From contig CP175956.1 in NCBI GenBank assembly GCA_046116545.1, positions 897,734 through 961,733 of the forward strand: DNA of 64,000 bases. The letters run 5' to 3'. The stretch is from Candidatus Moraniibacteriota bacterium (lineage in GTDB: Bacteria; Patescibacteriota; Minisyncoccia; Moranbacterales; GCA-2747515). The notes beneath the pieces were generated by a model, which saw only the letters and a program-made list of their open reading frames with translations, was not told the origin of the DNA and did not search any database. Both the position numbers and the translations under genes were made by a program. Positions 7,569 to 54,328 of this stretch are shown one piece after another; the first letter of the stretch is position 1, and each line of letters opens with the position of its first letter.

Positions 7569-9350
7569 TTATTCTTTATCTTTTTGAGATTTATTAATTA
7601 TATTTCTAATAGAAGAAAGATCTATATTAGGTTTATTTGATGAATGTGCAAATTTCTTTGGAGCAACATGTTTTAGTTGAGATAATTTTAATGGTTTTTC
7701 ATTATTTGTTATCACAACATCCTTTTCGATAATTTCATCTTTTTTTTCCTCCTTCTTAACTGCTACTTTTTTAGGTGTTTTTTTTGGAATTTGTTCTTGT
7801 TGTGTATTTTCTTTTGTTTTAGCAAGTGTTCTCTGATGATCTTTAAAACACTCTTTACAAAAAACAGGCCTGTCACCATCAGGCTTAAATGGCACCTGAA
7901 CATTCAATTCACACATAGCACAAGTAGCATCATACACATCCTTTTTTTGAGACTCCTCATTATCATCATTTTTCACTACAGCAACTCTATCTGTAACTTT
8001 ATCTGTAACTTTTGTAGCATTAGTTTTTTTATTTTCTACAGTATTTCGTTTATTTGCAATTACAGTTGGCTTTTCTATAATCATTCCCGTCCATCTAGCT
8101 ATTTTTTCTTCAACTACCTCTCTATCCTCTGAATATCTTTCTCTAGAAACTTGTATCACCTTATCTGTACTATCCTCGTATTTTCTATCAATTGGCGGAA
8201 GTGTCGTAGCACTAAATGCATCTCCAGAAATACCATCTATCATCAACTTCAAATAAATATTGTATTTTGGCAAATTCACAATATCATTCATTGTAAACAC
8301 TGGCTCAAATTCTTTCTCAAGGTATTCAGCATCTGTCGCACCCACACGAAAAGAAACTATTGTCCCCACATTTCCAAATATAGCATCCCGCACAATTTCA
8401 TCTAGTTGCATTATGTACTGATTTGCTAAAATCAAATTCAAACGATATTTACGAGCTTCTGACAAAATATTTGCAAACGCCTCTGTAGCAAAGTTTTGAA
8501 ACTCATCAACATATAAATAAAAATCTTTACGACTTTCTTCTGGAGTATCTACCCTGCCCATAGCTGCAAGCTGAATTTTTGTAATAATCATTGCACCTAC
8601 CAAAGAACTATTATCCTCACCCATCCGTCCCTTTGATAAATTCAATATAAGAATTTTCTGATTATCCATTACATCACGTATATCAAAAGCTGATTTTGTT
8701 TGTCCCAATAAATTACGTATAATTGGACTTGTCAAAAACTGTCCAACTTTATTTTGGATTGGAGAAATAACCTCCTGTAAAACTCTTTCATTCCATTTTG
8801 GAAATTCATCCACCCAAAAAGCCTTCACAACAGGATCTGTAATATTATTAGATACACGAATACGATATTTTTTATCTGTCAAAATACGCATTACACCAAG
8901 TAAAGTACTACCAGGAGTCTCCAGTAAAGCCAATAAAGCATTTCTAAGAATATATTCAAGTCTAGGACCCCAAGAATCAGCCCACAATTTTTGAAATACA
9001 CCTATAAGACCAGAAGCAACCAAAGGTCGAAATTCACGTGGAACTTCTTCTAACACATTAAAAGCTATCGGGAAATCTTGATCAGAAGGATTAAAATAAA
9101 TGACATCATTTATTCTTTCTGGAGGTATCATACTAATTAACTTTTCTGCCGTATCACCATGTGGATCAACAAAACACATACCATGCCCACTTCGTATATC
9201 TTGAATAGCAAGATTCTCAAGCATGTTGGTTTTACCCATACCAGTCTTACCAATAGCGTATAAATGCCGACGTCTATCGTCAGTTTTTATACCAAATGCT
9301 GTTGCTTGATTTCTAAAATTCGTTTGTGCAAATGCTGTTATCTCTGTCAT
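7569..9350 (-). CDS. FtsK/HerA/VirD4-superfamily P-loop ATPase (type IV coupling-protein-like) with a C-terminal CxxC...CxxC zinc ribbon and a K-rich tail
   Basis: Walker A AIGKTGMGKTN followed by DPHGD; Walker B FYLYVDEFQNF. The C-terminus carries CAMCELNVQVPFKPDGDRPVFCKEC, then a lysine-rich tail. Confidence 0.55.
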   Translation of the reverse strand: MTEITAFAQTNFRNQATAFGIKTDDRRRHLYAIGKTGMGKTNMLENLAIQDIRSGHGMCFVDPHGDTAEKLISMIPPERINDVIYFNPSDQDFPIAFNVLEEVPREFRPLVASGLIGVFQKLWADSWGPRLEYILRNALLALLETPGSTLLGVMRILTDKKYRIRVSNNITDPVVKAFWVDEFPKWNERVLQEVISPIQNKVGQFLTSPIIRNLLGQTKSAFDIRDVMDNQKILILNLSKGRMGEDNSSLVGAMIITKIQLAAMGRVDTPEESRKDFYLYVDEFQNFATEAFANILSEARKYRLNLILANQYIMQLDEIVRDAIFGNVGTIVSFRVGATDAEYLEKEFEPVFTMNDIVNLPKYNIYLKLMIDGISGDAFSATTLPPIDRKYEDSTDKVIQVSRERYSEDREVVEEKIARWTGMIIEKPTVIANKRNTVENKKTNATKVTDKVTDRVAVVKNDDNEESQKKDVYDATCAMCELNVQVPFKPDGDRPVFCKECFKDHQRTLAKTKENTQQEQIPKKTPKKVAVKKEEKKDEIIEKDVVITNNEKPLKLSQLKHVAPKKFAHSSNKPNIDLSSIRNIINKSQKDKE

Positions 9351-20035: not shown

Positions 20036-23000
20036 TTAATTAACAATAAACCAATTAAATAAGAGATTTTCTTCAGATATCACATCCACCACAATCTTGA
20101 AGAATTGTTCAGCTTGGTTTTCTTCTACAAAAAACGTATTCCCAATCATATCACTAATAGGCGTCACAAACACACGACTACTCTCATGAACTCCATCACT
20201 TTCCACAATAACCTCCGTCTCCCCAGCAACTATAGTAGCAGTTCCAATTGAAGAAGCATTGATTTCATTACCTTGTTCATCTTGGGTTGTTATGTTGTCA
20301 TTGATATTTAATGTATTTGTTTGGATATTATTCACTTTTAAATCATCTAATACAGTTAGGCCTTCTAATGTAGTAACTGGTCTTGTAATCTCTGTTGTAG
20401 TTTCTGTTGTAAACAAGAATCTTTCATTTATTGCTAGTACTGTATCTGAGTTTGTTGATACTATACTTGCTAGAGTTATTTGATCTTGTTCTAGTATATC
20501 CATCCTATCTTCTATTTCTTGTATTGTCTCTGTTGCTAATTTATTTGCATCTATTTGTAGGGATAGGTCACTGACCTGTCCTTCGATATGGTTAAACTTA
20601 TCTTCAATATCATTTAGATTTTCATCTACTGACAACTGTAAATCTTGTAATGTTTGGATATTTGTATTTGTTTGTAATATTGTGTTATTTATTTGAGTAT
20701 CAATTTCACTTATTTTTTCTGGAGTTGGTAGATTTGATATATCTATCAGATTTAGATTTGGTATTTCTAATCCTGTTGTTATATCTGTAATATATATTAG
20801 TTGTTGTCCTGTTAGTTTTTCTATCAATCTTACTGTTTTTGTCATATCTACATTTATTGATTTGTTGTCTTTTTCAGAGTAATAGCTCCATGCTAGTTCT
20901 TCACTTTGTCCTCCTGGTATATTTGAGAAATTATGTGGAGATAGAGTTGTTGTATTTCCTGCTTCATCTCTTACTCTTAGTTCATGGGAACCACTTTGAT
21001 CTACTGCAAATAGTTGTATTCCGTCTGTTATTGATGTTGTTGGGGCTATTGAGTTTGAGATTGTTAGGATATTGTCTGCATTTGTTCCGTAGTTGTTACT
21101 TCCTATTCCTACGTTTCCTGATGTGTAGGCTATGTTGTTTCCTGTTTGGGTCCAGAGTGATGATGCGCTTGCTCCTCCATTTATATCCCATGCGTATATT
21201 CTATATTCTCCTGTTGTCCATCTATTATCTCCCACTGTATTGCCATATGTATTTGTATTATCACCAGAAAATACGTAATCATTTGCAGTTGCTAAATCGA
21301 ATGTATTATCATCTTTAAATAATAAATAATGTCCAGACATTTCTGAAGTGCTTACTTGCGTACCAAATTGAGCAGTAGCATCCCAAACACGACCATTTGG
21401 ATCTTTAAATAAAACTGTTGTATTTAATTCTGAAGTTCCTAAATTATGAGTTAGTTGATAATTATTTTCTTTTGTAACAGCAACCCATCCGCTATCATAA
21501 TCAGGAAGATCCGCTCCACTACCCACAGCATCAGCACATTCCCATTCACTATTTATTTCATTATATGAAAGAGTTTGACCATTTGTGCATGTTGGTAATG
21601 AAGTACTTCCTGATGATTCTTCTATTTTCCAGATTTTTAAGTCTGTAAAGACAGCTGGGTCACTATCAGCAACACCACCTAATCCGATAACATTATTTAC
21701 TTGTGTATAATGAATTACTTTTATAGCTGTTGTCTGTGTTAATGTGATTTGTCCAGATGCTCTCACAGGTACCGTTGCTGCGTCAGCAGGATCACTATAT
21801 AATGTAGAGCCCACCAATAATACATTATCATTTTCATCATCAATACGTAAATTTGTTCTTTGTACTCTTAATGCTGGTGCTTCTACATCTATATAATATG
21901 TACCTACTGGCAACGTTACTTCATTTGCTGTAAGTGCTGTCTCTGCAATTTCATTTATCAAAATTGTATTAAGTGTTCTATGGTTATCTCCTGTACTTGC
22001 ACTACCACCATCTGAACCTGTTGTTTTTTGATCTTGTACATGCATGAGACTCCATGACTGACCTCCACTAATTCCTGAACCAGTAGTAGCATTCAAATTC
22101 ATTACCACCATACTACCATCATCACAATTAACCCAATTTGATCCATCGTACGCTTGCCATATTCCACTTACAAATTTTAAAGATGAACCCATCCTTCTTG
22201 AACTCACACTGCTTATAGTACAAGAATCAGCTATGTAGTTAGAAGTACCTATTACAGTTCCACCTATATTTGTAGCAGCCTCTCCACATCCAACTACATC
22301 ATCAGTTCCATCTCCATCAGATTGTTCATTTGTGCAGTGTAAGAAAATGTTATCTCCGCCTCCACTCAAACTGTCAGCACATTCCCATTCACTACTTGTT
22401 TCATTATATGAAAGAGTTTGACCATCTGTACATGTTGGTAATGATGAGGATGAAGAACTTCCTGCGTATTCGTATATGATAACTGCTCCATTTGCTCCAA
22501 CTGCAGCAGAAGATGCACCACCTCCAGCTCCACCTCCACCTGAACCATATGCACTACCAGCACCAGCACTTGTACTATTATAAGAACCGCCTGTACCACC
22601 ACCACCAAAATATGATGCACCACCAGTACCTGCATTACTATTTATATTTCCAAAACCTGTCCCTCCATCACCACCATCCGTATTTATATCTCCATCAAAA
22701 CCAGAACCACCTGCACCACCAGCTTGTGTATTACCTGAACTTCCACCAGTTGCTGATAATAATGAACCAAAAGAAGAGCTTCCACCTCCATTATTTACTG
22801 TACCCCCAGAACCAATTGTTACTGTCTCACTTGATATTTCTGAGACATCAATAATTTCTTCTGCATAACCACCTGCTCCACCACCTCCAGATGTTTGAGC
22901 AGAACTTCCACCACCACCTGCACCAACAACTTGAACACGAATAGTTTCAATTCCTACTGGTTTTGTCCATGTATGTGCTCCTGCTGTATCAAATGTTTGA

Positions 23001-26000
23001 ATTGATGCTATTCCTCCTCCACCTGAACTTCCACTATCTGTACTAAAAGCACCCCACTGCGTTCCATTACAAAACTCCATGACTTTTGTTGAGTCATTGT
23101 ATCTCATTGCACCTTCTTTGTTTACATCACATGCATCTGTATCATTTGTTAGAGTTATTGATCCTGTTAAGTTTATTGGTGCTGAAAACTCTATTTCATT
23201 TGATATTGTATTATATGATATTACTGCTTCATTTCCATCTTCTCCTATATGTAATGATGATGGTCCTAGGTATAGATCTCTAAATCTATTTGTTGAAGAT
23301 CCTAGGTCGTATGTATCATCTGTATCTGGTCCTATATTTCCTGCTACTTGTAATGTGAAGTTATCTGGAGTTGTTGTTCCTATTCCTACATTACCTAAAT
23401 CATAGTAAATGTCAGATCCACTTTGTGTCCAGATATCTGAATATGCCACACTACTACTTCCACCACTAACTTCTACACTTACTTCGACAGTTCCACTAAA
23501 TGATTCTGGTAATACAGCATACTCAGTAACATCATCACCAGTTGATCCTGTAATGAACATTTTTGTACCATCATTATTGAATGCAATACCTTGTGCTGAC
23601 GTGTCCTGTGCAAGTACACCAAACTTAGAACTATACACAGCAGTAGATACATCAAATGCATTGGAAAGATTGTACTCGTTTACTTCATCACCATTACTTC
23701 CCACAATAAACATCTTTGTTCCTTTGATATTAAAAGTAATATCTTGTGGTCCAGTTTCTTGTGCTGCAACAGAGAAATTAGAATCATATACTGTGGTAGA
23801 TATATCAAATCCCGTTGAGAGATGGTATTCATTAACATCATCACCTGTTACTCCTGTGATGAACATTTTTGTACCATCAGTATTAAATGCAATCCCCGTT
23901 GGAGAGTCTTCTTGTACGGTTATATCAAACCTGGAATCATATACTGCAGTGGACACATCAAATGCAGTAGAAAGATTATATTCATTTATTTCATCTGCTG
24001 TATTTCCTATAATAAACATTTTTGTTCCATCAGTGTTAAATGCTATGCCTTGTGGTGCAGCATCTTCTGAAAAATCAAAAATAGAATCGTATACAGCTGT
24101 TGTCACATCAAATGCGGTGGAGAGATGATATTCATTGATATCAGTACCTGTAGCACCCACAATAAACATTTTTGTTCCATCAGTATTAAATGTAATACCT
24201 TGTGGTGAAGTATCTTGCGCTGCAACACTAAAGCTAGCTGAATAATCGACAGGACTAAATTCAAATCCTCTTGGAAGATGGTATTCATTCACATCATCAC
24301 CCGTTGTGCCTGTAACGAACATTTTTGTACCATCATTATTGAATGCAATATTTTGTGGCAAAGACTCTTGTGCACTCACACTAAATCTGAAAACAAAATT
24401 TGCTGTAGAAATATCAAAACCAGTTGAAAGTTCATATTCATTAATATCAAGACCTACAGAACCAGTTATGAACATTTTTGTACCATCACCGTTAAAAGCA
24501 ATACCTGTTGGCGTAGTGTCTTGCGCTGCAACAGAGAAATTAGAATCATACACTGCAGTAGACACATCAAATCCTGTAGAAAGATGGTACTCGTTTATAT
24601 CATCACCTGTATTTCCTACAATGAACATTTTGGTTCCATCGGTGTTGAAATCAATGCCTTGTGGTGCAGTGTCTTGCGCTGCAACAGAGAAATTAGAATC
24701 ATACACTGCAGTAGACACATCAAATCCTGTAGAAAGATGGTACTCGTTCACATCATCACCACTTGTCCCAACAATGAACATCTTTGTACCATCAGTATTA
24801 AAAGTAACATCATTCGGAGCAGTTTCTTGTGCTGCGACAGAGAAATTAGAATCATACACTGCAGTCGATGTATCAAATCCTATTGAAAGATGGTATTCAT
24901 TGACATCATCACCTGTAGTTCCTGTGATAAACATTTTTGTTCCATCGTTATTAAAAGTAATTCCATTTGGCGCTGTTTCTTGTGCTCCAACACTAAAATT
25001 AGAATCAAATGTTGCAGTTTCACCAACAGTAAACCCTTCACTCACAGATTCAATTTTGATATTATCACTTGCGATTACATCGAAATAGTTATAATCATCA
25101 TCAATTAAACCTATCGTATGTTGCAAAACATCATCAGCAAGAACTCTCATAGAGCCAGTTGATAAATTTTCTGTGTCCACGACAACACGATAGAGACTTG
25201 TTTCCGTAAGGTTCTCAAAAGCAGTCCATGTCTCTGCTGTTGTAAATGTATGATTTAATCCTGATGTTCCTGTTGATAGTCCTCCCCAAGCAGTTCCATT
25301 ACAAAACTCCATGACTTTTGTAGTGTCATTGTATCTCATTGCACCTTCTTTTGTTACGTCACAAGCTGATGCGTCATTATTTAGAGTTATACTTCCTCCT
25401 ATTGCTAGATTGTTTCCATCATATGTGAAGTTTGAGTTTTGAGTTATTGCATTTCCTGCACTATTTGCAAATTGTATTTGATTTGCACTTAGGCTTGCTG
25501 GTGTATCTGTTAATCCTGTATATGTTGAAACTCCTCCACTTGATGTTAGAGAGTTCCATGTTGAACCATCGTATCCTTCTAGGTCTGTTCCTGACCATCT
25601 TATCATTCCTGCTACTGCATTTGTACTTGTCCCAAATACTGCTGCTTTATCAAAGTTGAAAGCTTCGTTTGTTGTATCGTAGCTTATTATTCCTTCATTT
25701 CCGTTTGTTCCTATATGTAGAGAGTTTGGTCCTAGGTATAGGTCTCTGAATCTATTTGTACTACTTCCTAGGTCGTATGTGTCATTTGTTGATGGTAATA
25801 AATTTCCTGTATTTGTTATTTGCAATCTTTCTACTCCATTTGTATCGAATCTTATTGTATCATCATCTAACTCACCTTTATCTGTTTGTATCCCTGTATC
25901 AGTATCTGCATCCCAAAGTGAAGCTAAGTAACCTCCCCCTGCATTGCTTGTTGATTTTATACAGTATAGGACATTTATGTTTGTTGGTCTTGTTTCGTTT

Positions 26001-27436
26001 CCTCCTGAATTTGCACTATTGAATGCTGCTATATCTACTGTGTGCGTATGTGCGCCTGCATAGTTTGTGTAACCAGTATTAAGAGTTGTGGTTGTAAGCC
26101 CAATAGCAACCCTCAGAGTTCCAGCTCCACCCGATGGTGTCGCTCCAGAAATTGAATGCCTGTGATTTCCAGTTGAATTTGTACTAGTACTAGGAGGATC
26201 AACAGAATGAAGATGAGCTTCATTTTGTCCATCTTGCATTGAACCAACAACATCCCCAGTAGTCCCATCACCTCTATCAGTACGACTTGCTGCATCAGGA
26301 TCTGTTCCTGCACCGTTGTCCCAACCTCTTAAAAACTGTCCCCTGTAATCAGGGATATCAAATGTTGTTGAACCATCTCCACTTCCATATGTATCTCCTA
26401 GTATTGTATATAGATCTGGATAACCTGCTCTTGATATTTCTTGACCTTCTGCAGATATATAGTTAGTTGGACATGAGTTTGTTGCAAAGGCTACTACTGT
26501 ACCTGCTGGAACTGTTTCACCTGCACCTCCTGATCCTGAACCTGTACTTAGCTCTTGCCAGTCTGATCCATCACAAAGTTCTAAAGTTTGATTTACTGAA
26601 TTATATCTTGTTGTCCCTGCTAAAACTGGAATACATGCACTTGATTCATTTCCTATCTTTATCCCTCCATTTACATCTAGAGTTGTTGCTGGTGTATTCG
26701 TATTTATTCCTAATCTATTATTTGAGTTATCCCAAAAGAAATTTGTATTATCTTCTTCTATTGCTGTAGGAGATGTGAATAGTACACTTCCTGCAGTATA
26801 TGCACTCATTGTATCTACTAATCCTAAAAATGTATTATCTATCCAATCTGTTCCTGTAGTCGTTGAAGATAATATTTGTCCATTAGTCCCTGCATTTATA
26901 TTTGAATCATAAAGTATTCCACTTACTGATAGATCTCCATCTATTGTTAAATTTGCATTCTTTGTTTGATTTGTTGTTGAATTCAAATAGTAATCTTCTG
27001 TTTGTCCATTAAATCTATGTGAGTTTAAAGCAAAACCTGTAGGAGTTATCTTTCTCCTTGGAGTCATTTCTGGATTTGAGTTTATTGTTACTCCTAAGTA
27101 ATAGTTTGAATCAAAAGATATATCTAATAGGTTATCTCCTGTTTCTCCTAGAGTTGTACTAAATATTCCATTTGTTATTGTAATTGTTTTTGAAGTTGGA
27201 GTTCCACATGATCCTCTACTTGTCCATAGACAATTTCCTCCTGTGTCTGCATCGTATATTGTTAATGTAAAATCATAATCTCCATCTGATACTGCTACGT
27301 TATTAGTATCTGTTAGTTTTCCATGATATGTTAGTTCACTGTCTGGTGCAGCTTGTGTAATTGAAAAATTAAGAATTATTGCTAACGCAATTATTCCTAA
27401 TATGTAAGTTAATTTGTTTTTGAAAGTTTTTTTCAT
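20036..27436 (-). CDS. Giant secreted or cell-surface protein (2466 aa) with phage tail-fibre-like modules
   Basis: The N-terminal signal peptide is MKKTFKNKLTYILGIIALAIILNFSITQA. A tail-collar-like segment reads ...YPDLYTILGDTYGSGDGSTTFDIPDYRGQFLRGWDNGAGTDPDAASRT...HTHTV. About 12 tandem 43-44-aa repeats follow (...P.GI.FN.DGTKMFI.G..GDD.NEYHLSTGFDVSTAVYDS.FSVAAQ). There is a Gly-rich domain (TFDTAGAHTWTKPVGIETIRVQVVGAGGGGS...) and a duplicated LPTCT(D/N)GQTLSYNE..SEWECAD module. A C-terminal coiled coil is present, and there is no C-terminal TM helix. Confidence 0.8.
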   Translation of the reverse strand: MKKTFKNKLTYILGIIALAIILNFSITQAAPDSELTYHGKLTDTNNVAVSDGDYDFTLTIYDADTGGNCLWTSRGSCGTPTSKTITITNGIFSTTLGETGDNLLDISFDSNYYLGVTINSNPEMTPRRKITPTGFALNSHRFNGQTEDYYLNSTTNQTKNANLTIDGDLSVSGILYDSNINAGTNGQILSSTTTGTDWIDNTFLGLVDTMSAYTAGSVLFTSPTAIEEDNTNFFWDNSNNRLGINTNTPATTLDVNGGIKIGNESSACIPVLAGTTRYNSVNQTLELCDGSDWQELSTGSGSGGAGETVPAGTVVAFATNSCPTNYISAEGQEISRAGYPDLYTILGDTYGSGDGSTTFDIPDYRGQFLRGWDNGAGTDPDAASRTDRGDGTTGDVVGSMQDGQNEAHLHSVDPPSTSTNSTGNHRHSISGATPSGGAGTLRVAIGLTTTTLNTGYTNYAGAHTHTVDIAAFNSANSGGNETRPTNINVLYCIKSTSNAGGGYLASLWDADTDTGIQTDKGELDDDTIRFDTNGVERLQITNTGNLLPSTNDTYDLGSSTNRFRDLYLGPNSLHIGTNGNEGIISYDTTNEAFNFDKAAVFGTSTNAVAGMIRWSGTDLEGYDGSTWNSLTSSGGVSTYTGLTDTPASLSANQIQFANSAGNAITQNSNFTYDGNNLAIGGSITLNNDASACDVTKEGAMRYNDTTKVMEFCNGTAWGGLSTGTSGLNHTFTTAETWTAFENLTETSLYRVVVDTENLSTGSMRVLADDVLQHTIGLIDDDYNYFDVIASDNIKIESVSEGFTVGETATFDSNFSVGAQETAPNGITFNNDGTKMFITGTTGDDVNEYHLSIGFDTSTAVYDSNFSVAAQETAPNDVTFNTDGTKMFIVGTSGDDVNEYHLSTGFDVSTAVYDSNFSVAAQDTAPQGIDFNTDGTKMFIVGNTGDDINEYHLSTGFDVSTAVYDSNFSVAAQDTTPTGIAFNGDGTKMFITGSVGLDINEYELSTGFDISTANFVFRFSVSAQESLPQNIAFNNDGTKMFVTGTTGDDVNEYHLPRGFEFSPVDYSASFSVAAQDTSPQGITFNTDGTKMFIVGATGTDINEYHLSTAFDVTTAVYDSIFDFSEDAAPQGIAFNTDGTKMFIIGNTADEINEYNLSTAFDVSTAVYDSRFDITVQEDSPTGIAFNTDGTKMFITGVTGDDVNEYHLSTGFDISTTVYDSNFSVAAQETGPQDITFNIKGTKMFIVGSNGDEVNEYNLSNAFDVSTAVYSSKFGVLAQDTSAQGIAFNNDGTKMFITGSTGDDVTEYAVLPESFSGTVEVSVEVSGGSSSVAYSDIWTQSGSDIYYDLGNVGIGTTTPDNFTLQVAGNIGPDTDDTYDLGSSTNRFRDLYLGPSSLHIGEDGNEAVISYNTISNEIEFSAPINLTGSITLTNDTDACDVNKEGAMRYNDSTKVMEFCNGTQWGAFSTDSGSSGGGGIASIQTFDTAGAHTWTKPVGIETIRVQVVGAGGGGSSAQTSGGGGAGGYAEEIIDVSEISSETVTIGSGGTVNNGGGSSSFGSLLSATGGSSGNTQAGGAGGSGFDGDINTDGGDGGTGFGNINSNAGTGGASYFGGGGTGGSYNSTSAGAGSAYGSGGGGAGGGASSAAVGANGAVIIYEYAGSSSSSSLPTCTDGQTLSYNETSSEWECADSLSGGGDNIFLHCTNEQSDGDGTDDVVGCGEAATNIGGTVIGTSNYIADSCTISSVSSRRMGSSLKFVSGIWQAYDGSNWVNCDDGSMVVMNLNATTGSGISGGQSWSLMHVQDQKTTGSDGGSASTGDNHRTLNTILINEIAETALTANEVTLPVGTYYIDVEAPALRVQRTNLRIDDENDNVLLVGSTLYSDPADAATVPVRASGQITLTQTTAIKVIHYTQVNNVIGLGGVADSDPAVFTDLKIWKIEESSGSTSLPTCTNGQTLSYNEINSEWECADAVGSGADLPDYDSGWVAVTKENNYQLTHNLGTSELNTTVLFKDPNGRVWDATAQFGTQVSTSEMSGHYLLFKDDNTFDLATANDYVFSGDNTNTYGNTVGDNRWTTGEYRIYAWDINGGASASSLWTQTGNNIAYTSGNVGIGSNNYGTNADNILTISNSIAPTTSITDGIQLFAVDQSGSHELRVRDEAGNTTTLSPHNFSNIPGGQSEELAWSYYSEKDNKSINVDMTKTVRLIEKLTGQQLIYITDITTGLEIPNLNLIDISNLPTPEKISEIDTQINNTILQTNTNIQTLQDLQLSVDENLNDIEDKFNHIEGQVSDLSLQIDANKLATETIQEIEDRMDILEQDQITLASIVSTNSDTVLAINERFLFTTETTTEITRPVTTLEGLTVLDDLKVNNIQTNTLNINDNITTQDEQGNEINASSIGTATIVAGETEVIVESDGVHESSRVFVTPISDMIGNTFFVEENQAEQFFKIVVDVISEENLLFNWFIVN

Positions 27437-29485: not shown

Positions 29486-30535
29486 CTAATTTGATTTTTT
29501 AAGACCTAAATAAATTATATCACTATTGATTGGGTCATGTTCAATAACATCTACGATTCTATTACTTGCAGTATCTGTAATTGCCCAACCATCACCTATA
29601 CTAGTATATACTGCTTTTGCAGCTGCGTATACTAGTTGACTTGAATCGTGTGGATTTACATCCATTGCATGAATTGGTATCCCAACAGTACTTGCTATAA
29701 CATCAACTGGATTCCAAGACTTTCCATAATCCTTTGACCTAGATACTCCACTATCAGTTCCTACAGCAATATCTCCTGACACATATGGACTTACTGTCAT
29801 AGAATACAAACTGCCTTCGAACAATTTTTCCGTCTCGCTGTCTCTATCAATATCATTCCTAATACTTTCAAATGTTGCTCCATCATCTCTAGATTTCACT
29901 ATATCACTAATGCCAATTAATGCATATAACGTATTATCATCAACTGAATCAATAGCTAAATCAACAACAGTATCAGTAGCTAAATATAAATTTTCCCATG
30001 TATTACCAGCATTAACTGTTTTTGCTATTGTGCCTCCACTTGTCCCTAAATATATTACAGCTCCATTTTCCGCTGACATTGTCATGGCAGTTATATTTGT
30101 TCCATCTGCTGGTTCTACATAAATACGATCCCATGTCTCTCCACCATCAATTGTTTTTATTATACTGCCACGACCCTGATACATGCCACTAATATAAAAA
30201 GTATTCGTGTTAAACGGATTTATAACTATATTATCAATATTCAACAATCCACTTTGCAATAAACTCCAAGAATTTGCCCCATCTCTACTGATATATAAAT
30301 CTTTCTTTTCAGTCCCTGCATATACAACATTATTATCTGTTGGATCTATAGCTATAGAACTCACATTTGAACGTGCAAGCGAACTTTCCTCATTTATGAA
30401 ATTGCTTGGTTCAAATGTTTTACCACCATCAATGCTCTTGAAAACTCCTCCAGTAGAATTACCTGACTCACCACCTATACATCCGGATAATACAGAAAGC
30501 GCTGCAAATAAAATTGTTATTGATAAATATTTCAT
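29486..30535 (-). CDS. Lipoprotein with BNR/Asp-box repeats (Ycf48/sialidase-like beta-propeller)
   Basis: Lipobox LSGC after a signal helix. Repeated S/D-x-D-G-x-T/S-W boxes: SRDGANSW, IDGGETW, NAGNTW, DDGATF, DYGKSW. The start is taken at the Met preceding the signal peptide. Confidence 0.55.
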   Translation of the reverse strand: MKYLSITILFAALSVLSGCIGGESGNSTGGVFKSIDGGKTFEPSNFINEESSLARSNVSSIAIDPTDNNVVYAGTEKKDLYISRDGANSWSLLQSGLLNIDNIVINPFNTNTFYISGMYQGRGSIIKTIDGGETWDRIYVEPADGTNITAMTMSAENGAVIYLGTSGGTIAKTVNAGNTWENLYLATDTVVDLAIDSVDDNTLYALIGISDIVKSRDDGATFESIRNDIDRDSETEKLFEGSLYSMTVSPYVSGDIAVGTDSGVSRSKDYGKSWNPVDVIASTVGIPIHAMDVNPHDSSQLVYAAAKAVYTSIGDGWAITDTASNRIVDVIEHDPINSDIIYLGLKKSN

Positions 30536-30654
30536 ATATAATAAATATACACTAAAAAGTATAAAAAACCAATCCACAAAACTACTATTGCATTATTTTT
30601 TATTTTTGTTATAATAGATTTCGTGATGTTAAATTTACATCCCAAATATTCTAC

Positions 30655-30727
30655 GGGCCAGTAGCTCATCTGGTAGAGCGCCTCACTTGCACTGAGGAGG
30701 TAGCGGGTTCAAGTCCTGTCTGGTCCA
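30655..30727 (+). tRNA. tRNA-Ala (anticodon TGC)
   Basis: Cloverleaf GGGCCAG...CTGGTCC with a G3:U70 pair and anticodon loop CTTGCAC. No CCA is encoded. Confidence 0.85.
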
Positions 30728-30759
30728 CAACTTCACAATGCACAATAAAAAAATATTAA

Positions 30760-30833
30760 GGGCGATTAGCTCAGCTGGTTAGAGCGCGTCACTGATAATG
30801 ACGAGGTCCGAGGTTCAAGTCCCCGATCGCCCA
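30760..30833 (+). tRNA. tRNA-Ile (anticodon GAT)
   Basis: GGGCGAT acceptor, anticodon loop CTGATAA, T-loop GGTTCAAGTCC. Confidence 0.85.
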
Positions 30834-30837
30834 CATA

Positions 30838-30886: not shown

Positions 30887-32356
30887 TTAAAATAATGTTT
30901 CTTTTTCCGGAAAATTGATTGAACGTAATTGCCTCTCATCATTTATAGATGTATTTATAAAAAATAATTCATTCATCTTATGCTTATTAATCACTGTTGT
31001 TTTTACATTTTCTAAATTCATTATTGTATCTGTGATTCTACTTCCTCGATAATCTAATTCTGTTATTTTAATATCACCGTCAACTGTATATATTACATGT
31101 TCATAATTTTTTGAAAAATGAACATTATCAAGTTTTTGCGAAAAACGAACAACTGACTGGGTTTGATCTTCATATCTAACTGGTTGTGCTTCAGTATCCC
31201 TTGTTATGTATATAAATATTTCAAATGGAGAATAAAATAATAATTTCTTACCATCATCAGAAAAATGTGCTCCTATTATATTTGAACCTATTTGCTTTGT
31301 GTATATATTTTTTTCTCCCTTATTATATAGATATAAATTCCCATTATTATCATCCATCACAATCACTCTATGATTATCATAGGCAATCAACCTATAATCA
31401 TTGCCATGCCTACTTATATCAAATGTAGTTATTTTTTCCATATTAGATGCCTCTTTTTTATCTCCTCCATACAACAATTCACCATTCATACTCAATGCAT
31501 ATATGCCATCATCAGCAAAATCATACGCAAAAACATCACTCAAAATAACATCATTTTGCAAGTCTTGTTCTTCTCCATCAAGATCCAACCTATATAAACT
31601 GCCTTTCATCAAAAAATATATAACATTTTTTTCTTCCGGATCCCAACGAACAGATTTCATATCATTAGAATTTATCAGTTCAGAAAGATATTCTGCTTTA
31701 CTTGTTTTCATTGAAGCTATAATGTAATCATTACTTTCTAAGTTTTTGTCTTGCACAATGACTGGAATAATCAATTGATTACTATTAGGAGACCATTCTA
31801 TATTTTCATATACGTTATCTGTAAATATTGTTTTAGGAAATACAAATGAATTTATTGACTTATTTTTCTTTGTATCAAAAACATACGCAATAAGTGTATT
31901 TCCCATTTGACTAGTCATTGCAAATATATTCTCTTGTGGAGCTGGGAAAAAATCATCTATATTTTTTATATCAAATGTTTCTTCTTCATATTCATCTCTC
32001 AATAACAAAATATTCCATAATTCTGTAGATAACCCGCTATGTATATTAATCTTTTTTGACCAAGTCTTAAAATTGTCTAAATTTATTTCTACATCATACT
32101 GCCCAGGTCGCAATCCCGTTATAAAATATGAGTCATTAATTATGTTAACCAGTCTTGATTTTGGTTCTTCTCCATTTAATTTTATATTTACGTCTTTCGG
32201 ATTTGTCTTCAATGTCAACGAACCTGTATATATAAATATCTTATTTTTCACATCATGTCTGTAACCAAACACAAAAAATAACACTATGCTTGTGATTATA
32301 AAATATGACACAAAAAGTGTCCAAAAAAATATTCGTCTAGTTACTGGTGTCTTCAT
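30887..32356 (-). CDS. Membrane-anchored PEGA-domain plus beta-propeller (TolB/PD40-like) protein
   Basis: N-terminal TM helix, then a PEGA-like segment (LTLKTNPKDVNIKLNGEEP...GQYDVEINLDNF), then repeated propeller-like blades. Confidence 0.5.
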   Translation of the reverse strand: MKTPVTRRIFFWTLFVSYFIITSIVLFFVFGYRHDVKNKIFIYTGSLTLKTNPKDVNIKLNGEEPKSRLVNIINDSYFITGLRPGQYDVEINLDNFKTWSKKINIHSGLSTELWNILLLRDEYEEETFDIKNIDDFFPAPQENIFAMTSQMGNTLIAYVFDTKKNKSINSFVFPKTIFTDNVYENIEWSPNSNQLIIPVIVQDKNLESNDYIIASMKTSKAEYLSELINSNDMKSVRWDPEEKNVIYFLMKGSLYRLDLDGEEQDLQNDVILSDVFAYDFADDGIYALSMNGELLYGGDKKEASNMEKITTFDISRHGNDYRLIAYDNHRVIVMDDNNGNLYLYNKGEKNIYTKQIGSNIIGAHFSDDGKKLLFYSPFEIFIYITRDTEAQPVRYEDQTQSVVRFSQKLDNVHFSKNYEHVIYTVDGDIKITELDYRGSRITDTIMNLENVKTTVINKHKMNELFFINTSINDERQLRSINFPEKETLF

Positions 32357-44245: not shown

Positions 44246-45550
44246 TTACGGCCTAGTCTCAATAAGTCTACCACTGGAGCAATCTGCATTTGAATTACAT
44301 GTAGATGTACACGCTACATTATTAGTTGAGTCAGATGGAACTGGAGTTGCTTGACAACTTCCCTGTGCATTACATTCTCTTGCTGTGCAATATCCACTAG
44401 TTGTTCCTATTGTTGTTTTTGGATCATCAATTGTTGGATCTGATGAAGTGCAAGTTACTGGAATTGTTACTGAATTAGTATTTTGAGTTATATCAACTCC
44501 TAGAGTTCCTGTACCATTAAATGGAACTGTTTCACTTGAGTCATCTGTTTCACAAGTATATCTATTGCTACACAATCCTTCTGGTTCTACTGATATATTA
44601 ACTGTTGCATCACTGCCATCTATTGGCCAAGGGAATGGATTTGGATTTATTATTAATTCTGGTCTAAAGCATTGTGCATTACATACTATAGATTCTGCAT
44701 GTGTTGGATTATTTCCTATTCTTAGACAATTCCAACTCCAAGGTCCTTCTACTGAAGATCCTATCAAGCTACCTACTTCATATGTTCCTCCGGAACATAG
44801 TTCATCACTTTCTGTTGGTGCTGTTGTTAACAGAGGGTCAGCATCTGTGAATGTTGTGTTGCACTCAGCCTCTTCTTCGTTTGGAGCTGAACATGTAACA
44901 TCAGTTGTACCACCAGCATCACCTGTACAAGTCCAAGTCCACATATTTGTACTTGTATTTAATGTAACTGGATACGGAGTAGGATCTCCATATATACATA
45001 AATTTTCTTCTGGTTCTGGAGCTATTCCAGTTGCCTGCTCATCTGTTGTTGGATCACATATTCCACAGTTTCTTTGTAAATCTTCATTTAAATTGTCACA
45101 ACTTGTTCCTGACGTTGAGTGCCGTGTTACCGATGTTGCTGATTGAATCCCATTTTCATCACATTCACTCCATGTGTCTACCTCTAAGTAATAACAAGTA
45201 TACGTTATTCTAATTGGCTCTGAAACATTTGTACACCATACACCACAGCCCCCCGTATAGCAGGTGGCATAATTCGGGTTTTGTATTCCCCTACTACAAC
45301 TCGCACATGATCCTCCACTAGTACATGCTGAGGGCCCACAATAACCCCCTCCACGACAAATTCCTATAGTACCTACAGAGCTCCAGCTACACCTACTCAC
45401 ACTTGTTGTATAACAAGCAGGATCCCCAGCATTAACAGGTACACCGCCTTCTACTGCACATGTATTAGCTGCATTTACATTTTGAAATATAGCGAATACT
45501 GTGAATGTTAATATCATCAATGTTAATATTTTTTTCATATATTTATTCAT
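44246..45550 (-). CDS. Secreted Cys-rich, Thr/Gly-rich protein
   Basis: Signal peptide MNKYMKKILTLMILTFTVFAIFQNVNA; more than 40 Cys in 434 aa, many in CxxC and CxC spacing; no TM helix. Confidence 0.5.
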   Translation of the reverse strand: MNKYMKKILTLMILTFTVFAIFQNVNAANTCAVEGGVPVNAGDPACYTTSVSRCSWSSVGTIGICRGGGYCGPSACTSGGSCASCSRGIQNPNYATCYTGGCGVWCTNVSEPIRITYTCYYLEVDTWSECDENGIQSATSVTRHSTSGTSCDNLNEDLQRNCGICDPTTDEQATGIAPEPEENLCIYGDPTPYPVTLNTSTNMWTWTCTGDAGGTTDVTCSAPNEEEAECNTTFTDADPLLTTAPTESDELCSGGTYEVGSLIGSSVEGPWSWNCLRIGNNPTHAESIVCNAQCFRPELIINPNPFPWPIDGSDATVNISVEPEGLCSNRYTCETDDSSETVPFNGTGTLGVDITQNTNSVTIPVTCTSSDPTIDDPKTTIGTTSGYCTARECNAQGSCQATPVPSDSTNNVACTSTCNSNADCSSGRLIETRP

Positions 45551-52579: not shown

Positions 52580-54328
52580 ATGAATAACATAAAAAAGTCT
52601 GACAAATTAATATTACAATCAATACTCATTTTGGTGATTTCTCTTGCATGGATAACATTTCTTTCAGCTTTGCTTGGTATTTTTTATGGAACCTTTATTT
52701 GGGGATTTTTTGCATTACTTACTATATTTTTTTATAAACAAAAAATTATAACATTTAGCAAACCTTCTCAAAACTTCTTGACTTATATACTTATTTCACT
52801 AAGCTTTGCTCTTCTTATTGCTTTTTTTACTACCCCTTCTATATTTTCTGGTAGAGACCAAGGCTCATTATCTGATGCTGCCATATTACTTTCTGAACAT
52901 CATAATTTAATATCTCACTCAACACAAAGTGACATATTTTTTAATATAAATGAAAAAGGAAAGGCTCTTAATTTTCCAGGATTTTTTTATACAATTGATG
53001 GTGGGCTTATTACACAATTTCCAATTCCCTATATAGCATTCATCAGTGTATTTTTCGGTACATTCGGCACAGCTGGTTTTGTCGTAGCTAATGCAATATT
53101 ATTGTTTACCTTCATCTTAGCAATTACTGGCGTTACTGCTTTTTACATGAATCGAAACTACACATTAATATTTTTAATAACTCTTTTATCATCATTCTCT
53201 ATAGGATGGTTTGCGAAGTATACTTTGAGTGAAAATATCGCAAGCGCATTGATTTGGAGTTCTCTATTTCTATATATATTTCTCAAAGAGTCAAAAAATC
53301 AAATTACCTATTTTGCACTGATTTCAATGATTTCTCTATTACTGTTCACAAGAATTGAAGGGATTTGGTTTTTTGTTATTTTTAGTTTTTTACTACTAAA
53401 AAATAAGAACTCCAAAAAATTTATAGGAAAAGACTTATGGTGGCGAGCGATATTTCCAGTAACAACGCTTTTTGTTATTTTTTGTACTGTACTTATAGTA
53501 AATAATCCCTTTTATATAACAATGATAAAAGCGTTCTTGAATTCTGGAACAGGATCTTCTGGAATAACACTATTTGATAAAATATCTTACAATTTTTACA
53601 TTTATTCAATTTATGGATTAATTCTTCCGCTATTCTTTACATTAATTGCAAGTATTATTTCATTCAAACAAAAAAGAATGAGACTCGCATTACTACCCAT
53701 AGCTATAATGTTTCCACTTTTTCTATATTATCTTTTTCCTCAAATAAGTGGTGATCATCCTTGGATGCTTCGCAGATTTGTATCAGCGCTTTTACCAGCA
53801 ACTATTTTAATAAGCATTTTATTATCATATTACATAAAACCCAAAAATATATATTATAAAATTTTTAAATATGCAATCCCTGTTGTAATAATATTAGCTA
53901 ACATTCCATCTCTTATTTTATTTTTAACTTATTCAGAAAACATTAACTTGCAATCCCAAATACATGATATATCACAAAATTTTAGAGAAAATGATTTAGT
54001 CCTAGTAGATGGAACTGCAACTGGAGACGGATGGTCAATGATGACCTCTCAATTAAATAATTTGGAAAATAAAAATGCTGTTTATTTTTTCAACATTGCA
54101 GACTTAGACAAATTAGATTTAACAGCTTACGAGAAAGTATTCTTAATAACTCCCAATACTAATAAAGAATTCTATAGTAAAATTAACAATAGATTTAGTT
54201 ATGTAAATAAATACACGCTCACGACACAAAGACTACTAACTCCTGATAAAAAAATATTTCCACATAAATTTCCAAAAAAAGAAAATGAAAATATATACGG
54301 AACTATTTATGAAATAAACTTAAACTAA
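52580..54328 (+). CDS. Polytopic membrane protein, GT-C-fold glycosyltransferase-like
   Basis: More than 12 TM helices, an early loop motif SGRDQGS, and a C-terminal soluble domain. Confidence 0.45.
   Translation: MNNIKKSDKLILQSILILVISLAWITFLSALLGIFYGTFIWGFFALLTIFFYKQKIITFSKPSQNFLTYILISLSFALLIAFFTTPSIFSGRDQGSLSDAAILLSEHHNLISHSTQSDIFFNINEKGKALNFPGFFYTIDGGLITQFPIPYIAFISVFFGTFGTAGFVVANAILLFTFILAITGVTAFYMNRNYTLIFLITLLSSFSIGWFAKYTLSENIASALIWSSLFLYIFLKESKNQITYFALISMISLLLFTRIEGIWFFVIFSFLLLKNKNSKKFIGKDLWWRAIFPVTTLFVIFCTVLIVNNPFYITMIKAFLNSGTGSSGITLFDKISYNFYIYSIYGLILPLFFTLIASIISFKQKRMRLALLPIAIMFPLFLYYLFPQISGDHPWMLRRFVSALLPATILISILLSYYIKPKNIYYKIFKYAIPVVIILANIPSLILFLTYSENINLQSQIHDISQNFRENDLVLVDGTATGDGWSMMTSQLNNLENKNAVYFFNIADLDKLDLTAYEKVFLITPNTNKEFYSKINNRFSYVNKYTLTTQRLLTPDKKIFPHKFPKKENENIYGTIYEINLN

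Follow-up and report, generated by a model that had tools for sequence, protein, structure and literature searches.

We analyzed a window of 64,000 nucleotides, the whole stretch of DNA considered here, from an uncultivated CPR/Patescibacteria organism (Candidatus Moraniibacteriota) and studied a tail fiber protein gene at positions 20036-27436 of its minus strand. The single giant ORF of 2,466 aa read there in the first-pass annotation is real: the frame is intact, and its product is identical to the NCBI entry XLQ19853.1 ("MAG: tail fiber protein"), whose gene lies on one contig of 1,286,331 bp (1.29 Mb). The ATP synthase operon (atpBFAGD) flanks the gene on one side and rseP/frr on the other. 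A Pfam scan of the 21 window ORFs showed that the remaining genes are housekeeping genes, with no capsid, tape-measure, baseplate, sheath, integrase or lysis gene and no defence-system neighbour among them. The GC content (0.362) and GC3 (0.163) resemble those of the neighbouring genes, and the codon composition is native. Promoter and terminator scans gave nothing above shuffled controls. The protein is very acidic (312 D+E vs 93 K+R) and holds 18 Cys, mostly in close pairs, which would fit an extracellular protein. Its segments are as follows (window coordinates, strand, residues):

27350..27436, minus strand (aa 1-29): Sec-type signal peptide or signal anchor, the only hydrophobic segment
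26924..27349, minus strand (aa 30-171): N-domain of the mosaic adhesive trimer (MAT) type, proposed cell-proximal anchor, from homology and paralogue identity
26537..26923, minus strand (aa 172-300): stalk segment and Cys-pair module copy 1 (aa 253-300), from the duplication map and phrog_523/327 tail-fibre matches
25937..26536, minus strand (aa 301-500): tail-collar/gp12-like receptor-binding domain, from Pfam Collar and PDB 1ocy
25262..25936, minus strand (aa 501-725): neck motif copy 1 (DTYDLGSSTNRFRDLYLGP, aa 538-595) and Cys-pair module copy 2 (aa 677-724), from duplications
23537..25096, minus strand (aa 781-1300): ten tandem 51-aa beta-propeller blades, from TRF, Pfam SGL, AlphaFold and Foldseek
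23027..23536, minus strand (aa 1301-1470): WTQ/GNVGIG module copy 1, neck motif copy 2 and Cys-pair module copy 3, from duplications
22457..23005, minus strand (aa 1478-1660): glycine-rich domain (Gly_rich_2), from Pfam PF21722
21509..22477, minus strand (aa 1654-1976): four-Cys domain of 240 aa with an LPTCT..SEWECAD Cys module on either side, from duplication
21188..21508, minus strand (aa 1977-2083): ~110-aa domain with no fold assigned and no Pfam or PDB match
20777..21187, minus strand (aa 2084-2220): WTQ/GNVGIG module copy 2 and X-module (aa ~2105-2215), from phage homologues and AlphaFold
20453..20722, minus strand (aa 2239-2328): long coiled-coil helix, from AlphaFold
20039..20248, minus strand (aa 2397-2466): C-terminal beta-domain ending in ..NWFIVN, with the family motif DWFIV conserved

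The leader, read by hand, consists of an n-region (MKKTFKNK), an h-region (LTYILGIIALAIILNF) and a c-region (SITQA, followed by A), and its putative site, T-Q-A before the next A, obeys the -3/-1 rule (T..A) in a manual check. No hydrophobic segment was found in XLQ19853 beyond aa 4-31, which agrees both with the Sec-type signal peptide and with the lack of a membrane anchor proposed earlier. The N-domain that follows (aa 30-171) is beta-rich and conserved, contains two invariant Cys and is 87-90% identical to that of the same-genome paralogues P0003 and P0004. An exhaustive search (E<=1e-3) found a family of 12,912 cluster representatives, in which the domain is almost always N-terminal; of the 150 representatives listed, nearly all have its start at residue ~30-60. 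The isolated domain matched the NCBIfam model NF053851 (Bdello_MAT_N) with E=6.1e-5 and 22.9 bits, against a curated cutoff of 60 bits, and 51 of 66 diverse members of the family matched the same model at E<=0.01 (best 1.4e-12). Because the score is far below the cutoff, the match points to superfamily homology and not to membership of the Bdellovibrio subfamily; at this level, the sequence comparison supports homology to the N-domain of the Bdellovibrio MAT fibres. Exact-pattern scans of IMG/VR viral contigs, which reach fairly close relatives only, confirmed no N-domain, while the alignment used for them (A4) confirms 19 genome loci. On sequence grounds, the N-domain is a cellular domain.

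The next recognizable module is the collar. Pfam Collar (PF07484) matched aa 312-369 (E=4.1e-19, 68.7 bits vs a cutoff of 24), and aa ~307-494 show sequence homology to the receptor-binding domain of T4 gp12 (PDB 1ocy, E=1.9e-7), with PDB 8kec, 9cuy and 2xgf also matching this gp12-like region, which bears out the gp12-type tail-collar motif read from the sequence. Three HxH motifs occur in the head (aa 408, 425 and 463), the third being the downstream HTHTV that had already been noticed. The first (AHLHS, aa 408) is conserved in six of six aligned homologues and aligns with both His of the gp12 YHKHA, His116/His118 of the 1ocy chain, which we take to be gp12 His445/His447, provided that the chain begins at residue 330. 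The gp12 head is reportedly a knitted trimer. A terminal GNETRPxN..Y.IK motif is likewise common to gp12 and the XLQ19853 head. The two proteins differ in setting, as the head of XLQ19853 is internal (aa 301-500) to a 2,466-aa secreted cellular protein whose gene has no baseplate or phage context, whereas the gp12 head sits distally on a virion fibre.

Several pieces of the protein are duplicated. The internal duplication map contains three copies of a Cys-pair module (aa 253-300, 677-724 and 1421-1466), two of the neck motif (aa 538-595 and 1362-1417) and two of a WTQ.G..GNVGIG module (aa 1322-1372 and 2084-2134). Residues 501-725 are 88-90% identical to P0003 and P0004 and gave a weak, sub-cutoff match to Pfam End_tail_spike (E=1.4e-3), the same motif scoring above the cutoff in P0002 and P0007. 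Residues 1301-1470 are 79% identical to P0004 and lie inside the match to the tail-fibre family phrog_863 (E=1.3e-48 over aa 1304-1704); overall, PHROG tail-fibre families match XLQ19853 at E=1e-48 and 3e-32.

The tandem repeats had been read as about 12 units of 43-44 aa and as likely propeller blades; the blades stood, but the number and period are ten and 51 aa. TRF placed the DNA array at 23529-25018 with a period of 153 nt (9.8 copies, 71% match), and Pfam SGL matched it with E=6.9e-12. The AlphaFold model of the array has 40 strands over 10 units, four in each (mean pLDDT 80), and Foldseek returned 1,762 propeller matches for it at E<=1e-3, the best being tandem propellers (E~1e-18 to 1e-19). 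Modelling thus confirmed that the repeats are beta-propeller blades, whose arrangement may be a single ring of ten or a pair of five-bladed propellers (TM 0.26-0.30, pTM 0.56). A PDB sequence search with the array gave no significant match. The array has 273 relatives in the viral contigs of IMG/VR, and arrays from contemporary uncultivated phages are 38-60% identical to it; on one viral contig (L104) genes for the major tail protein and the tape measure and a gene in the Dit position precede the propeller gene. The propeller array itself is a phage receptor-binding module.

A glycine-rich domain (31% Gly) matched PF21722, Gly_rich_2, at aa 1484-1655 (E=4.8e-8, 33.7 bits vs a cutoff of 24.3). 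The glycine-rich type of domain claimed earlier is therefore present, but not the family named for it, PF12810, which is absent from the Pfam output for XLQ19853 at E<=1. The duplicated Cys module was recovered as two LPTCT..SEWECAD copies (aa 1654-1695 and 1935-1976) that are 64% identical. The region that they delimit (aa 1654-1976) is partly homologous to P0003, P0006 and P0009 and has no Pfam or PDB relatives, the PDB sequence search covering aa 1650-2095. A viral-contig scan with aa 1696-2090 found no close relatives, the only kind that such single-protein patterns detect.

Toward the C-terminus lies the X-module, with the core ELRVRDEAGNtTTLSPHNF...AWSYYSE...INVDM...E.LTG..L.Y. More than 120 small tail-fibre proteins of phages share it at 55-66% identity, and in 96 of 125 of them it ends ~5 residues or fewer from the C-terminus; at least 148 contigs of IMG/VR contain it. 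Residues ~2105-2215 are covered by no model of Pfam, PHROG or NCBIfam, and a tblastn search of cultured-phage records (INPHARED) gave no match; among phages, the module is known from metagenomic ones only. AlphaFold models it as beta-rich with one short helix (pLDDT 75-90). It sits where the homologues P0002, P0006, P0007, P0010 and P0011 carry a canonical SDxRLK Peptidase_S74 trimerisation chaperone. XLQ19853 gave no match to PF13884, nor did its C-terminal segment when searched alone with a limit of E<=5; aligning the X-module with S74 in hhalign gave a probability of 6.7%; and no S74 chaperone was among the fold matches of the C-terminal region. The long coiled coil claimed from the sequence was reproduced by AlphaFold as a single ~90-residue helix (aa 2239-2328, pLDDT 90-96). 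Neither the X-module nor the terminal domain found a significant PDB match by sequence, and a PDB profile search with the C-terminal block returned only non-significant trimeric viral-fusion and fibre coiled coils. As modelled, the C-terminal part is similar to the distal domains of tailspikes and pyocin fibres; the closest known systems are the C-terminal domains of phage tailspikes/depolymerases and the tips of R-type pyocin fibres (PDB 7eea, 9k4a, 7w1c, 4ru4, 6cl6 and 6cu2), together with H-type lectins (2ccv).

XLQ19853 is not alone in its genome. At least three other giants on the same contig share its ends (the set being XLQ19853, 19940, 20013 and 20057), spread over ~200 gene positions and summing with it to 11,596 aa; a further homologue search using just the N-domain gave short fragments only and added no paralogue. 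Their N-terminal ~170 aa are 87-90% identical and their C-terminal ~380 aa 70-72%, while the middles are shuffled; the order from N-domain to C-terminal block is identical in all. Such swapped binding modules suggest, at the level of sequence, a diversified specificity. Since the C-terminal ~380 aa are conserved among the paralogues, the C-terminus may not be what sets the specificity of XLQ19853. A homologue from an independent genome (P0002) is an intact 2,591-aa ORF with a longer array of the same propeller repeat, and its locus, the sole homologue locus inspected, has a housekeeping context different from that of XLQ19853.

The closest characterized parallel is the MAT fibres of Bdellovibrio bacteriovorus (Caulton et al. 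2024, PMC10769870), which are trimeric and surface-localised, have a signal peptide, a conserved ~130-aa N-domain and S74 or non-S74 ends, and typically measure ~1,000 aa (listed range 417-1,915), with glycan binding shown for one member. Like them, XLQ19853 has a leader followed directly by a conserved, beta-rich N-domain, homologous at the superfamily level, is a long chimeric fibre of phage-like modules with several paralogues per genome, and has relatives that end in Peptidase_S74 or in non-S74 beta-sandwich domains; the lifestyles are putatively analogous too, both being those of cells that need to recognise other cells. Beyond the low N-domain score, several differences stand out. The host belongs to the CPR, which is absent from the MAT-bearing taxa of that study; the protein is 2.5-3 times the typical MAT length; and its paralogues vary in the middle with both ends constant, whereas MAT and phage fibres vary at the distal C-terminal tip. 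Its collar, 10-blade propeller and Gly_rich_2 modules and its ending of X-module, coiled coil and beta-sandwich are each absent from the tip types in Supplementary Table S3 of PMC10769870.

S74 fibres of the endosialidase/T5 pb1 type are another known relative. CPR homologues carry a canonical SDxRLKENI S74, after which come the coiled coil and terminal beta-domain that XLQ19853 also has, and the neck motif of XLQ19853 resembles the endosialidase stalk, but XLQ19853 has the X-module in place of a C-terminal S74. As it lacks S74, its end is of the non-S74 type. Neither a trimeric autotransporter translocator nor an LPXTG or other C-terminal sorting signal was found by Pfam and hydrophobicity, and the C-terminus (...NLLFNWFIVN) lies inside the beta-domain. 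Among CPR proteins, the giants of Vampirococcus lugosii (PMC8080830) are similar in being huge exported proteins of a reduced genome with a proposed role in host recognition and attachment. They differ in the WD40, PKD, integrin and fibronectin-type domains described there, and the portions of that report considered here mention no tail-collar, S74 or MAT-type architecture. A non-exhaustive literature search found nothing that connects the giant proteins of CPR bacteria with MAT or tail-collar fibres.

Taken together, the collar, glycine-rich, PHROG and propeller evidence supports, more strongly than the letters alone had allowed, the first-pass description of a secreted giant assembled from phage tail-fibre modules, a candidate adhesin or co-opted fibre. 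That annotation had held that a lack of significant collar or Gly-rich matches would speak against it; HMM searches gave significant matches to both (PF07484 and PF21722), and this objection therefore falls away. The term "co-opted phage fibre" fits the modules as their sequences read. We consider it probable that XLQ19853 is an N-terminally anchored, trimeric, mosaic surface fibre for adhesion, where the trimer, the anchoring, the direction of assembly and the adhesion are what we infer. The proposed adhesin function is strengthened by the homology of the N-domain to that of the experimentally characterized Bdellovibrio adhesive fibres. A trimeric state would be consistent with the gp12-like head and its aligned HxH, with the S74 chaperones of homologues and with the long coiled coil, the AlphaFold runs being of the monomer.

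According to this model, the Sec leader would export the chain, and the N-domain would remain cell-proximal and hold the fibre on the surface through a surface partner or an uncleaved signal anchor. A difficulty for this step is that a domain in common with diderm predators would have to be anchored in a CPR envelope. Three chains would form one fibre, their registration coming from the C-terminal block (X-module, ~13-nm coiled coil and terminal beta-sandwich), and a gp12-like metal-binding collar would lock the trimer. The interchangeable middle modules (collar/gp12-like head, ten blades, glycine-rich and Cys-bracketed domains) would present binding surfaces to cells or particles, so that at least four paralogues with the same ends and different middles might provide a repertoire of specificities. 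The middles may be reshuffled by recombination among the paralogues and with the phage tail-fibre gene pool.

Nearly every recognizable module has phage tail-fibre relatives and the NCBI label reads "tail fiber protein", as would be expected if the gene encoded a true virion or tailocin component, the fibre of a prophage or of a phage-tail-like particle. We regard this as very improbable. Virion fibres are assembled in the cytoplasm; XLQ19853 bears an N-terminal Sec-type leader. Its N-domain is a cellular Bdello_MAT_N homologue confirmed in no viral contig, and the paralogues are dispersed. The genomic context largely refutes a virion or tailocin origin, which was rejected because of the housekeeping flanks, devoid of phage structural, integrase or lysis genes among the 21 window ORFs, the unrelated housekeeping context of P0002 and the native composition; the gene is an old chromosomal resident and not a prophage remnant. 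An assembly artefact, whether paralogues fused into a chimera or an array that collapsed or expanded in the MAG, would explain a different set of features, as ten tandem repeats and several blocks 79-90% identical to same-genome paralogues can mislead assemblers. Collapse of the array was ruled out as an explanation and is unlikely at this locus because the longest exact repeat inside the gene is 81 bp and the repeat units are only 64% (median) to 87% (maximum) identical at the DNA level. The frame also runs unbroken over 7.4 kb without any N, the deposited record places the protein on one contig of 1.29 Mb, the independent P0002 carries a longer array in an intact ORF, and module order is constant in all paralogues, all of which leaves an artefact with hardly any probability.

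The remaining alternatives accept a cellular surface protein but give it another role. A general surface coat or matrix (S-layer-like, for biofilm or particle attachment, or for nutrient or glycan capture), with no specific partner recognition, would suit a secreted, giant, very acidic and repeat-rich protein whose C-terminal model matches lectin-like and propeller-type folds, which may be generic carbohydrate binders, and CPR giant surface proteins are described in parts of PMC8080830 as common and are credited there with a fibrous coat. The architecture, however, is that of the receptor-recognition fibres of phages and Bdellovibrio, unlike lattice-forming S-layer proteins; Pfam found no S-layer, SLH or cell-wall-binding domains, and the repertoire of swapped modules suggests specificity, so that we consider a coat unlikely. 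The identity of the X-module and the propeller to contemporary phages indicates a continuing exchange with the phage gene pool, and would also be compatible with a defensive decoy or competitor, whose displayed or shed receptor-binding modules block receptors or neutralise phages or epibionts. Nothing was found in favour of neutralisation, the Pfam-scanned window ORFs include no defence neighbours, and the closest characterized cellular relatives are adhesins; a decoy accordingly seems to us a far-fetched reading.

We therefore favour the anchored adhesive fibre. Going further, we suggest tentatively, as a possibility that we would not yet rank as probable, that Moraniibacteriota own an enlarged MAT-type system, with a constant anchor and C-terminal block and with middle cassettes traded with phages, serving host or partner recognition, and that the X-module is a new, widespread family of C-terminal assembly or tip domains of tail fibres, found in hundreds of uncultivated phages and taking the place of the S74 chaperone.

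To our knowledge, host recognition and attachment by ultra-small CPR/Patescibacteria are largely unknown outside Saccharibacteria. Type IV pili are implicated in host attachment in Saccharibacteria. The four giants occupy ~2.7% of the 1.29-Mb genome, a large investment for a reduced genome. The X-module, a terminal domain that many tail fibres of environmental phages share and that no family model covers so far, provides a practical lead. If the giants are MAT-like adhesive fibres, they would single out specific proteins as candidate determinants of host range in an uncultivated phylum, and a recently defined family of predator adhesins would extend to the CPR. Phage receptor-binding modules (collar head, propeller array and terminal domains) would here be reused on a cellular anchor, and the binding specificities of the fibres and of local phages are therefore predicted possibly to overlap.

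The giant ORF runs uninterrupted over 2,466 codons of the minus strand (window 20036..27436), and its product is identical to NCBI XLQ19853.1, found on a single contig of 1,286,331 bp. Its sole hydrophobic stretch is N-terminal (aa ~4-31; Kyte-Doolittle windows >1.5 begin at residues 4-13), and manual n/h/c reading of the N-terminus (MKKTFKNK / LTYILGIIALAIILNF / SITQA|A) bears out the Sec-type leader proposed in the first-pass annotation. The protein is strongly acidic (D+E 312 vs K+R 93), with 18 Cys, mainly in close pairs. A repeat collapse is unlikely, as no exact internal repeat exceeds 81 bp and the units are at most 87% identical to each other in DNA (median 64%). The following modules were identified in the giant protein by homology or structure prediction.

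Modules of the giant protein (residue numbers; gene on the minus strand)
aa 232-497, PHROG tail family, E=3e-32
aa ~307-494, gp12-like head, sequence homology to the T4 gp12 receptor-binding domain (1ocy), E=1.9e-7
aa 312-369, Collar, Pfam PF07484, E=4.1e-19
aa 1304-1704, PHROG tail family, E=1e-48
aa 1484-1655, glycine-rich domain, Pfam PF21722 Gly_rich_2, E=4.8e-8
aa ~2105-2215, X-module, beta-rich with one short helix, AlphaFold pLDDT 75-90
aa 2239-2328, single coiled-coil helix of 90 residues, AlphaFold pLDDT 90-96
aa ~2397-2465, terminal beta-domain of six strands after a disordered linker, AlphaFold pLDDT 85-94

The tail-collar segment read earlier from the sequence is a clear Pfam Collar domain, and the head around it is also related to further T4-type fibres (8kec, 9cuy, and 2xgf). 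This head carries three HxH motifs, the third of which (aa 463) is the HTHTV already noticed. The first (AHLHS, aa 408-410), kept in 6/6 aligned homologues, aligns to His116/His118 of the 1ocy chain, which we take to be gp12 His445/His447, provided the chain begins at residue 330; Thomassen et al. are said to have found in 2003 that these two residues coordinate metal in the knitted gp12 trimer. The glycine-rich domain is likewise real but belongs to Gly_rich_2, the family first proposed, PF12810, being absent from the Pfam matches. On self-comparison, a Cys-pair module occurs three times, a DTYDLGSSTNRFRDLYLGP neck and a WTQ.G..GNVGIG module twice each, and the duplication of the LPTCT module (two copies) is confirmed.

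Where about 12 repeats of 43-44 aa had been counted, the tandem array contains 10 units of 51 aa (153 nt; TRF 9.8 copies, 71% match), while their reading as propeller blades was upheld by Pfam, AlphaFold, and Foldseek. The isolated array matches Pfam SGL (E=6.9e-12), and its AlphaFold model, built on a small alignment (mean pLDDT 80, pTM 0.56), places exactly four strands in each unit, 40 in total. A Foldseek search of the PDB with this model gave 1,762 hits below or at E=1e-3, led by tandem double-propeller proteins (E~1e-18 to 1e-19); the TM-scores are low, at 0.26-0.30. On these models, we regard it as certain that the 51-aa repeats are beta-propeller blades. Given the low TM-scores and the pTM, the 10 blades may form either one 10-bladed ring or two 5-bladed propellers.

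The array has 273 relatives in IMG/VR viral contigs, 38-60% identical across its entire length. In one of these contigs (L104, 5260-8334, plus strand), a 1,024-aa array protein follows the major tail protein, the tape-measure protein, and the gene in the Dit position, and so occupies the siphophage tail-tip/receptor-binding slot. For the array loci (L101-L180), the PHROGs entry is just a short 'unknown function' family, phrog_17210.

The N-terminal domain (N-domain, aa 30-171) was searched for exhaustively by HMMER with aa 28-175. At E<=1e-3 this collected 12,912 cluster representatives, of which 1,741 also pass E<=1e-10; among the 150 proteins listed, from fragments to 4,422 aa in size, the domain nearly always begins at residue ~30-60. 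No PHROG family covers aa 1-230, and a pattern scan of limited reach with a tight N-domain alignment confirmed no IMG/VR locus. With this alignment, 19 loci were confirmed in a one-genome-per-species scan, 12 of them in Moraniibacteriota MAGs; the labels of the others include Micavibrio, Bdellovibrionales, Syntrophorhabdaceae, Margulisiibacteriota, Dojkabacteria, and Acidobacteria. Where readable fully or over long stretches, the ORFs at these loci span ~780 to >3,500 aa; five carry the intramolecular chaperone Peptidase_S74 (S74) and none the X-module. Two MAG contigs labelled Micavibrio (L082 and L084; GC 0.31 and 0.41) encode N-domains 65-72% identical to that of the giant protein, and either their binning or the name assigned to them seems doubtful; genuine Micavibrio does have a MAT (mosaic adhesive trimer) protein (PMC10769870, Supplementary Table S3).

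Against NCBIfam, the isolated N-domain matched NF053851 Bdello_MAT_N (E=6.1e-5, 22.9 bits, for a curated cutoff of 60), a model that 51/66 diverse members of the N-domain family also match (best 1.4e-12). The MAT family was defined by experiment in Bdellovibrio, where its members have a signal peptide followed by a conserved ~130-aa beta-rich N-domain and form intertwined trimeric fibres with S74 or non-S74 ends; the family has 21 paralogues and a surface localisation, and glycan binding was demonstrated in one member (PMC10769870). Further MAT proteins, of 417-1,915 aa, were listed in Oligoflexia, Micavibrio, Omnitrophica, FCB, PVC, and Myxococcales, a list from which Patescibacteria are missing (PMC10769870). 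Judged by sequence, the N-domain is the cellular part of the giant protein and is homologous to the MAT N-domain at the superfamily level, below the threshold of the curated Bdellovibrio subfamily. By analogy, the giant protein would work like a MAT fibre; it differs in host lineage, size, conserved C-terminus, and module content.

Three more giants on the same contig, P0003 (3,101 aa), P0004 (3,249 aa), and P0005 (2,780 aa), have blocks in common with this protein, the remainder being unrelated or in another order, so that the ends are constant and the middle varies.

Blocks of the giant protein shared with its paralogues
aa 1-171, 87-90% identity to P0003/P0004
aa 537-726, 88-90% identity to P0003/P0004
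aa 1333-1468, 79% identity to P0004
aa 2087-2466, 70-72% identity to P0003/P0004 and 44% to P0005

Among the precomputed Pfam domains of these paralogues are discoidin, Kelch, SPRY, RCC1, Collar, and Gly_rich_2. Going by their accessions (XLQ19853, 19940, 20013, and 20057), the four genes are spread over ~200 gene positions; they sum to 11,596 aa, ~2.7% of the contig.

The conserved C-terminal block (aa 2080-2466, AlphaFold mean pLDDT 76) has three confident parts, the last closing with the family motif ..DWFIV... The first, the ~110-aa X-module (within window 20777-21187, aa 2084-2220; near-invariant core ELkVRDEAGNvTTLSPHNF..IP.GpSEdmAW.YYSE...INvDM....R..E.ltGEkLvy), shares 55-66% identity with >120 small proteins, whose N-terminal parts match PHROG tail-fibre and tailspike families and in which it stops <=~5 residues from the C-terminus in 96/125 cases. 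IMG/VR has it on 148 contigs or more, whereas a search of cultured-phage records gave no match, and it is covered by no Pfam, PHROG, or NCBIfam model. In five homologues from the candidate phyla radiation (CPR), a canonical S74 domain (SDxRLKENI) stands at its position, and the coiled coil and terminal domain after it are the same as here. A divergent S74 was nevertheless rejected as its identity (hhalign probability 6.7%, with conflicting alignment registers), and no S74 chaperone is among the fold matches of the C-terminal block. The giant protein is neither an S74 fibre nor a trimeric autotransporter. The X-module, unmodelled, standing in for S74, and widespread in environmental phages, is its most novel element.

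Phage-like modules raise the reading as a virion tail fibre, and the name given by NCBI mirrors them. The context is not that of a phage: atpB, atpF, atpA, atpG, and atpD lie downstream, and an M50 (RseP-type) protease, frr, and a BNR protein upstream. The remaining large ORFs scanned are housekeeping (alaS, a UvrD/PD-(D/E)XK helicase-nuclease, aconitase, isocitrate dehydrogenase, a murD-like gene, a fusion with TruB, and a gene resembling a T4SS coupling protein), and the giant gene matches its neighbours in GC (0.362) and GC3 (0.163). The closest full-length homologue, P0002, from another genome (1.55 Mb), lies amid pentose-phosphate and glycosyltransferase genes, with no shared synteny and no phage module. 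We therefore reject the virion reading; the giant gene is a chromosomal resident, not a prophage.

Other features of the window
7569-9350, minus, TrwB/TraG-type type IV secretion coupling protein with a treble-clef zinc finger, in otherwise housekeeping surroundings
29486-30577, minus, 363-aa BNR/sortilin-Vps10-type repeat protein, likely another propeller, adjoining frr, two genes upstream of the giant gene's flank
30655-30834, plus, tRNA-Ala(TGC) adjoining tRNA-Ile(GAT)
30887-32356, minus, 489 aa, no Pfam match at the thresholds used
44246-45550, minus, 434 aa, likewise
52580-54328, plus, 582 aa, likewise
55966-57741, minus, 591-aa frame joining a TruB pseudouridine synthase (aa 31-245) to a glycosyltransferase of type GT4 (aa 290-569), which may be an unusual fusion or reflect a stop or frameshift that was missed

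The two tRNAs are the usual pair of the 16S-23S spacer; across the whole 64-kb window, Rfam gave no rRNA gene at its gathering score. GC skew is below zero across window 1-64000 (-0.08 to -0.42 per 2 kb), weakest within the giant gene, and 39/46 ORFs >=150 aa are on the minus strand.

The first-pass finding is real and its interpretation largely right. By their relatives, the modules other than the N-domain belong to the phage tail-fibre pool, and the giant protein is very probably a secreted trimeric fibre; the full statement, with an adhesive role, we consider moderately probable. A homotrimer is suggested by the gp12-type head with its aligned HxH, the S74 trimerisation chaperones in homologues, and the coiled coil. 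In trimeric phage fibres, folding commonly starts at a C-terminal nucleus, and the C-terminal block may act as a trimer registration/assembly module and distal cap, which would account for its S74-like conservation next to variable upstream modules. Giant surface proteins of CPR are already known in general terms (PMC8080830), and our literature search found no paper that links tail-collar or MAT fibres with them. The N-domain would, by analogy with MAT, hold the fibre at the cell surface. The middle modules would bind surface structures of other cells, and specificity may be diversified by paralogues and by exchange with phages.
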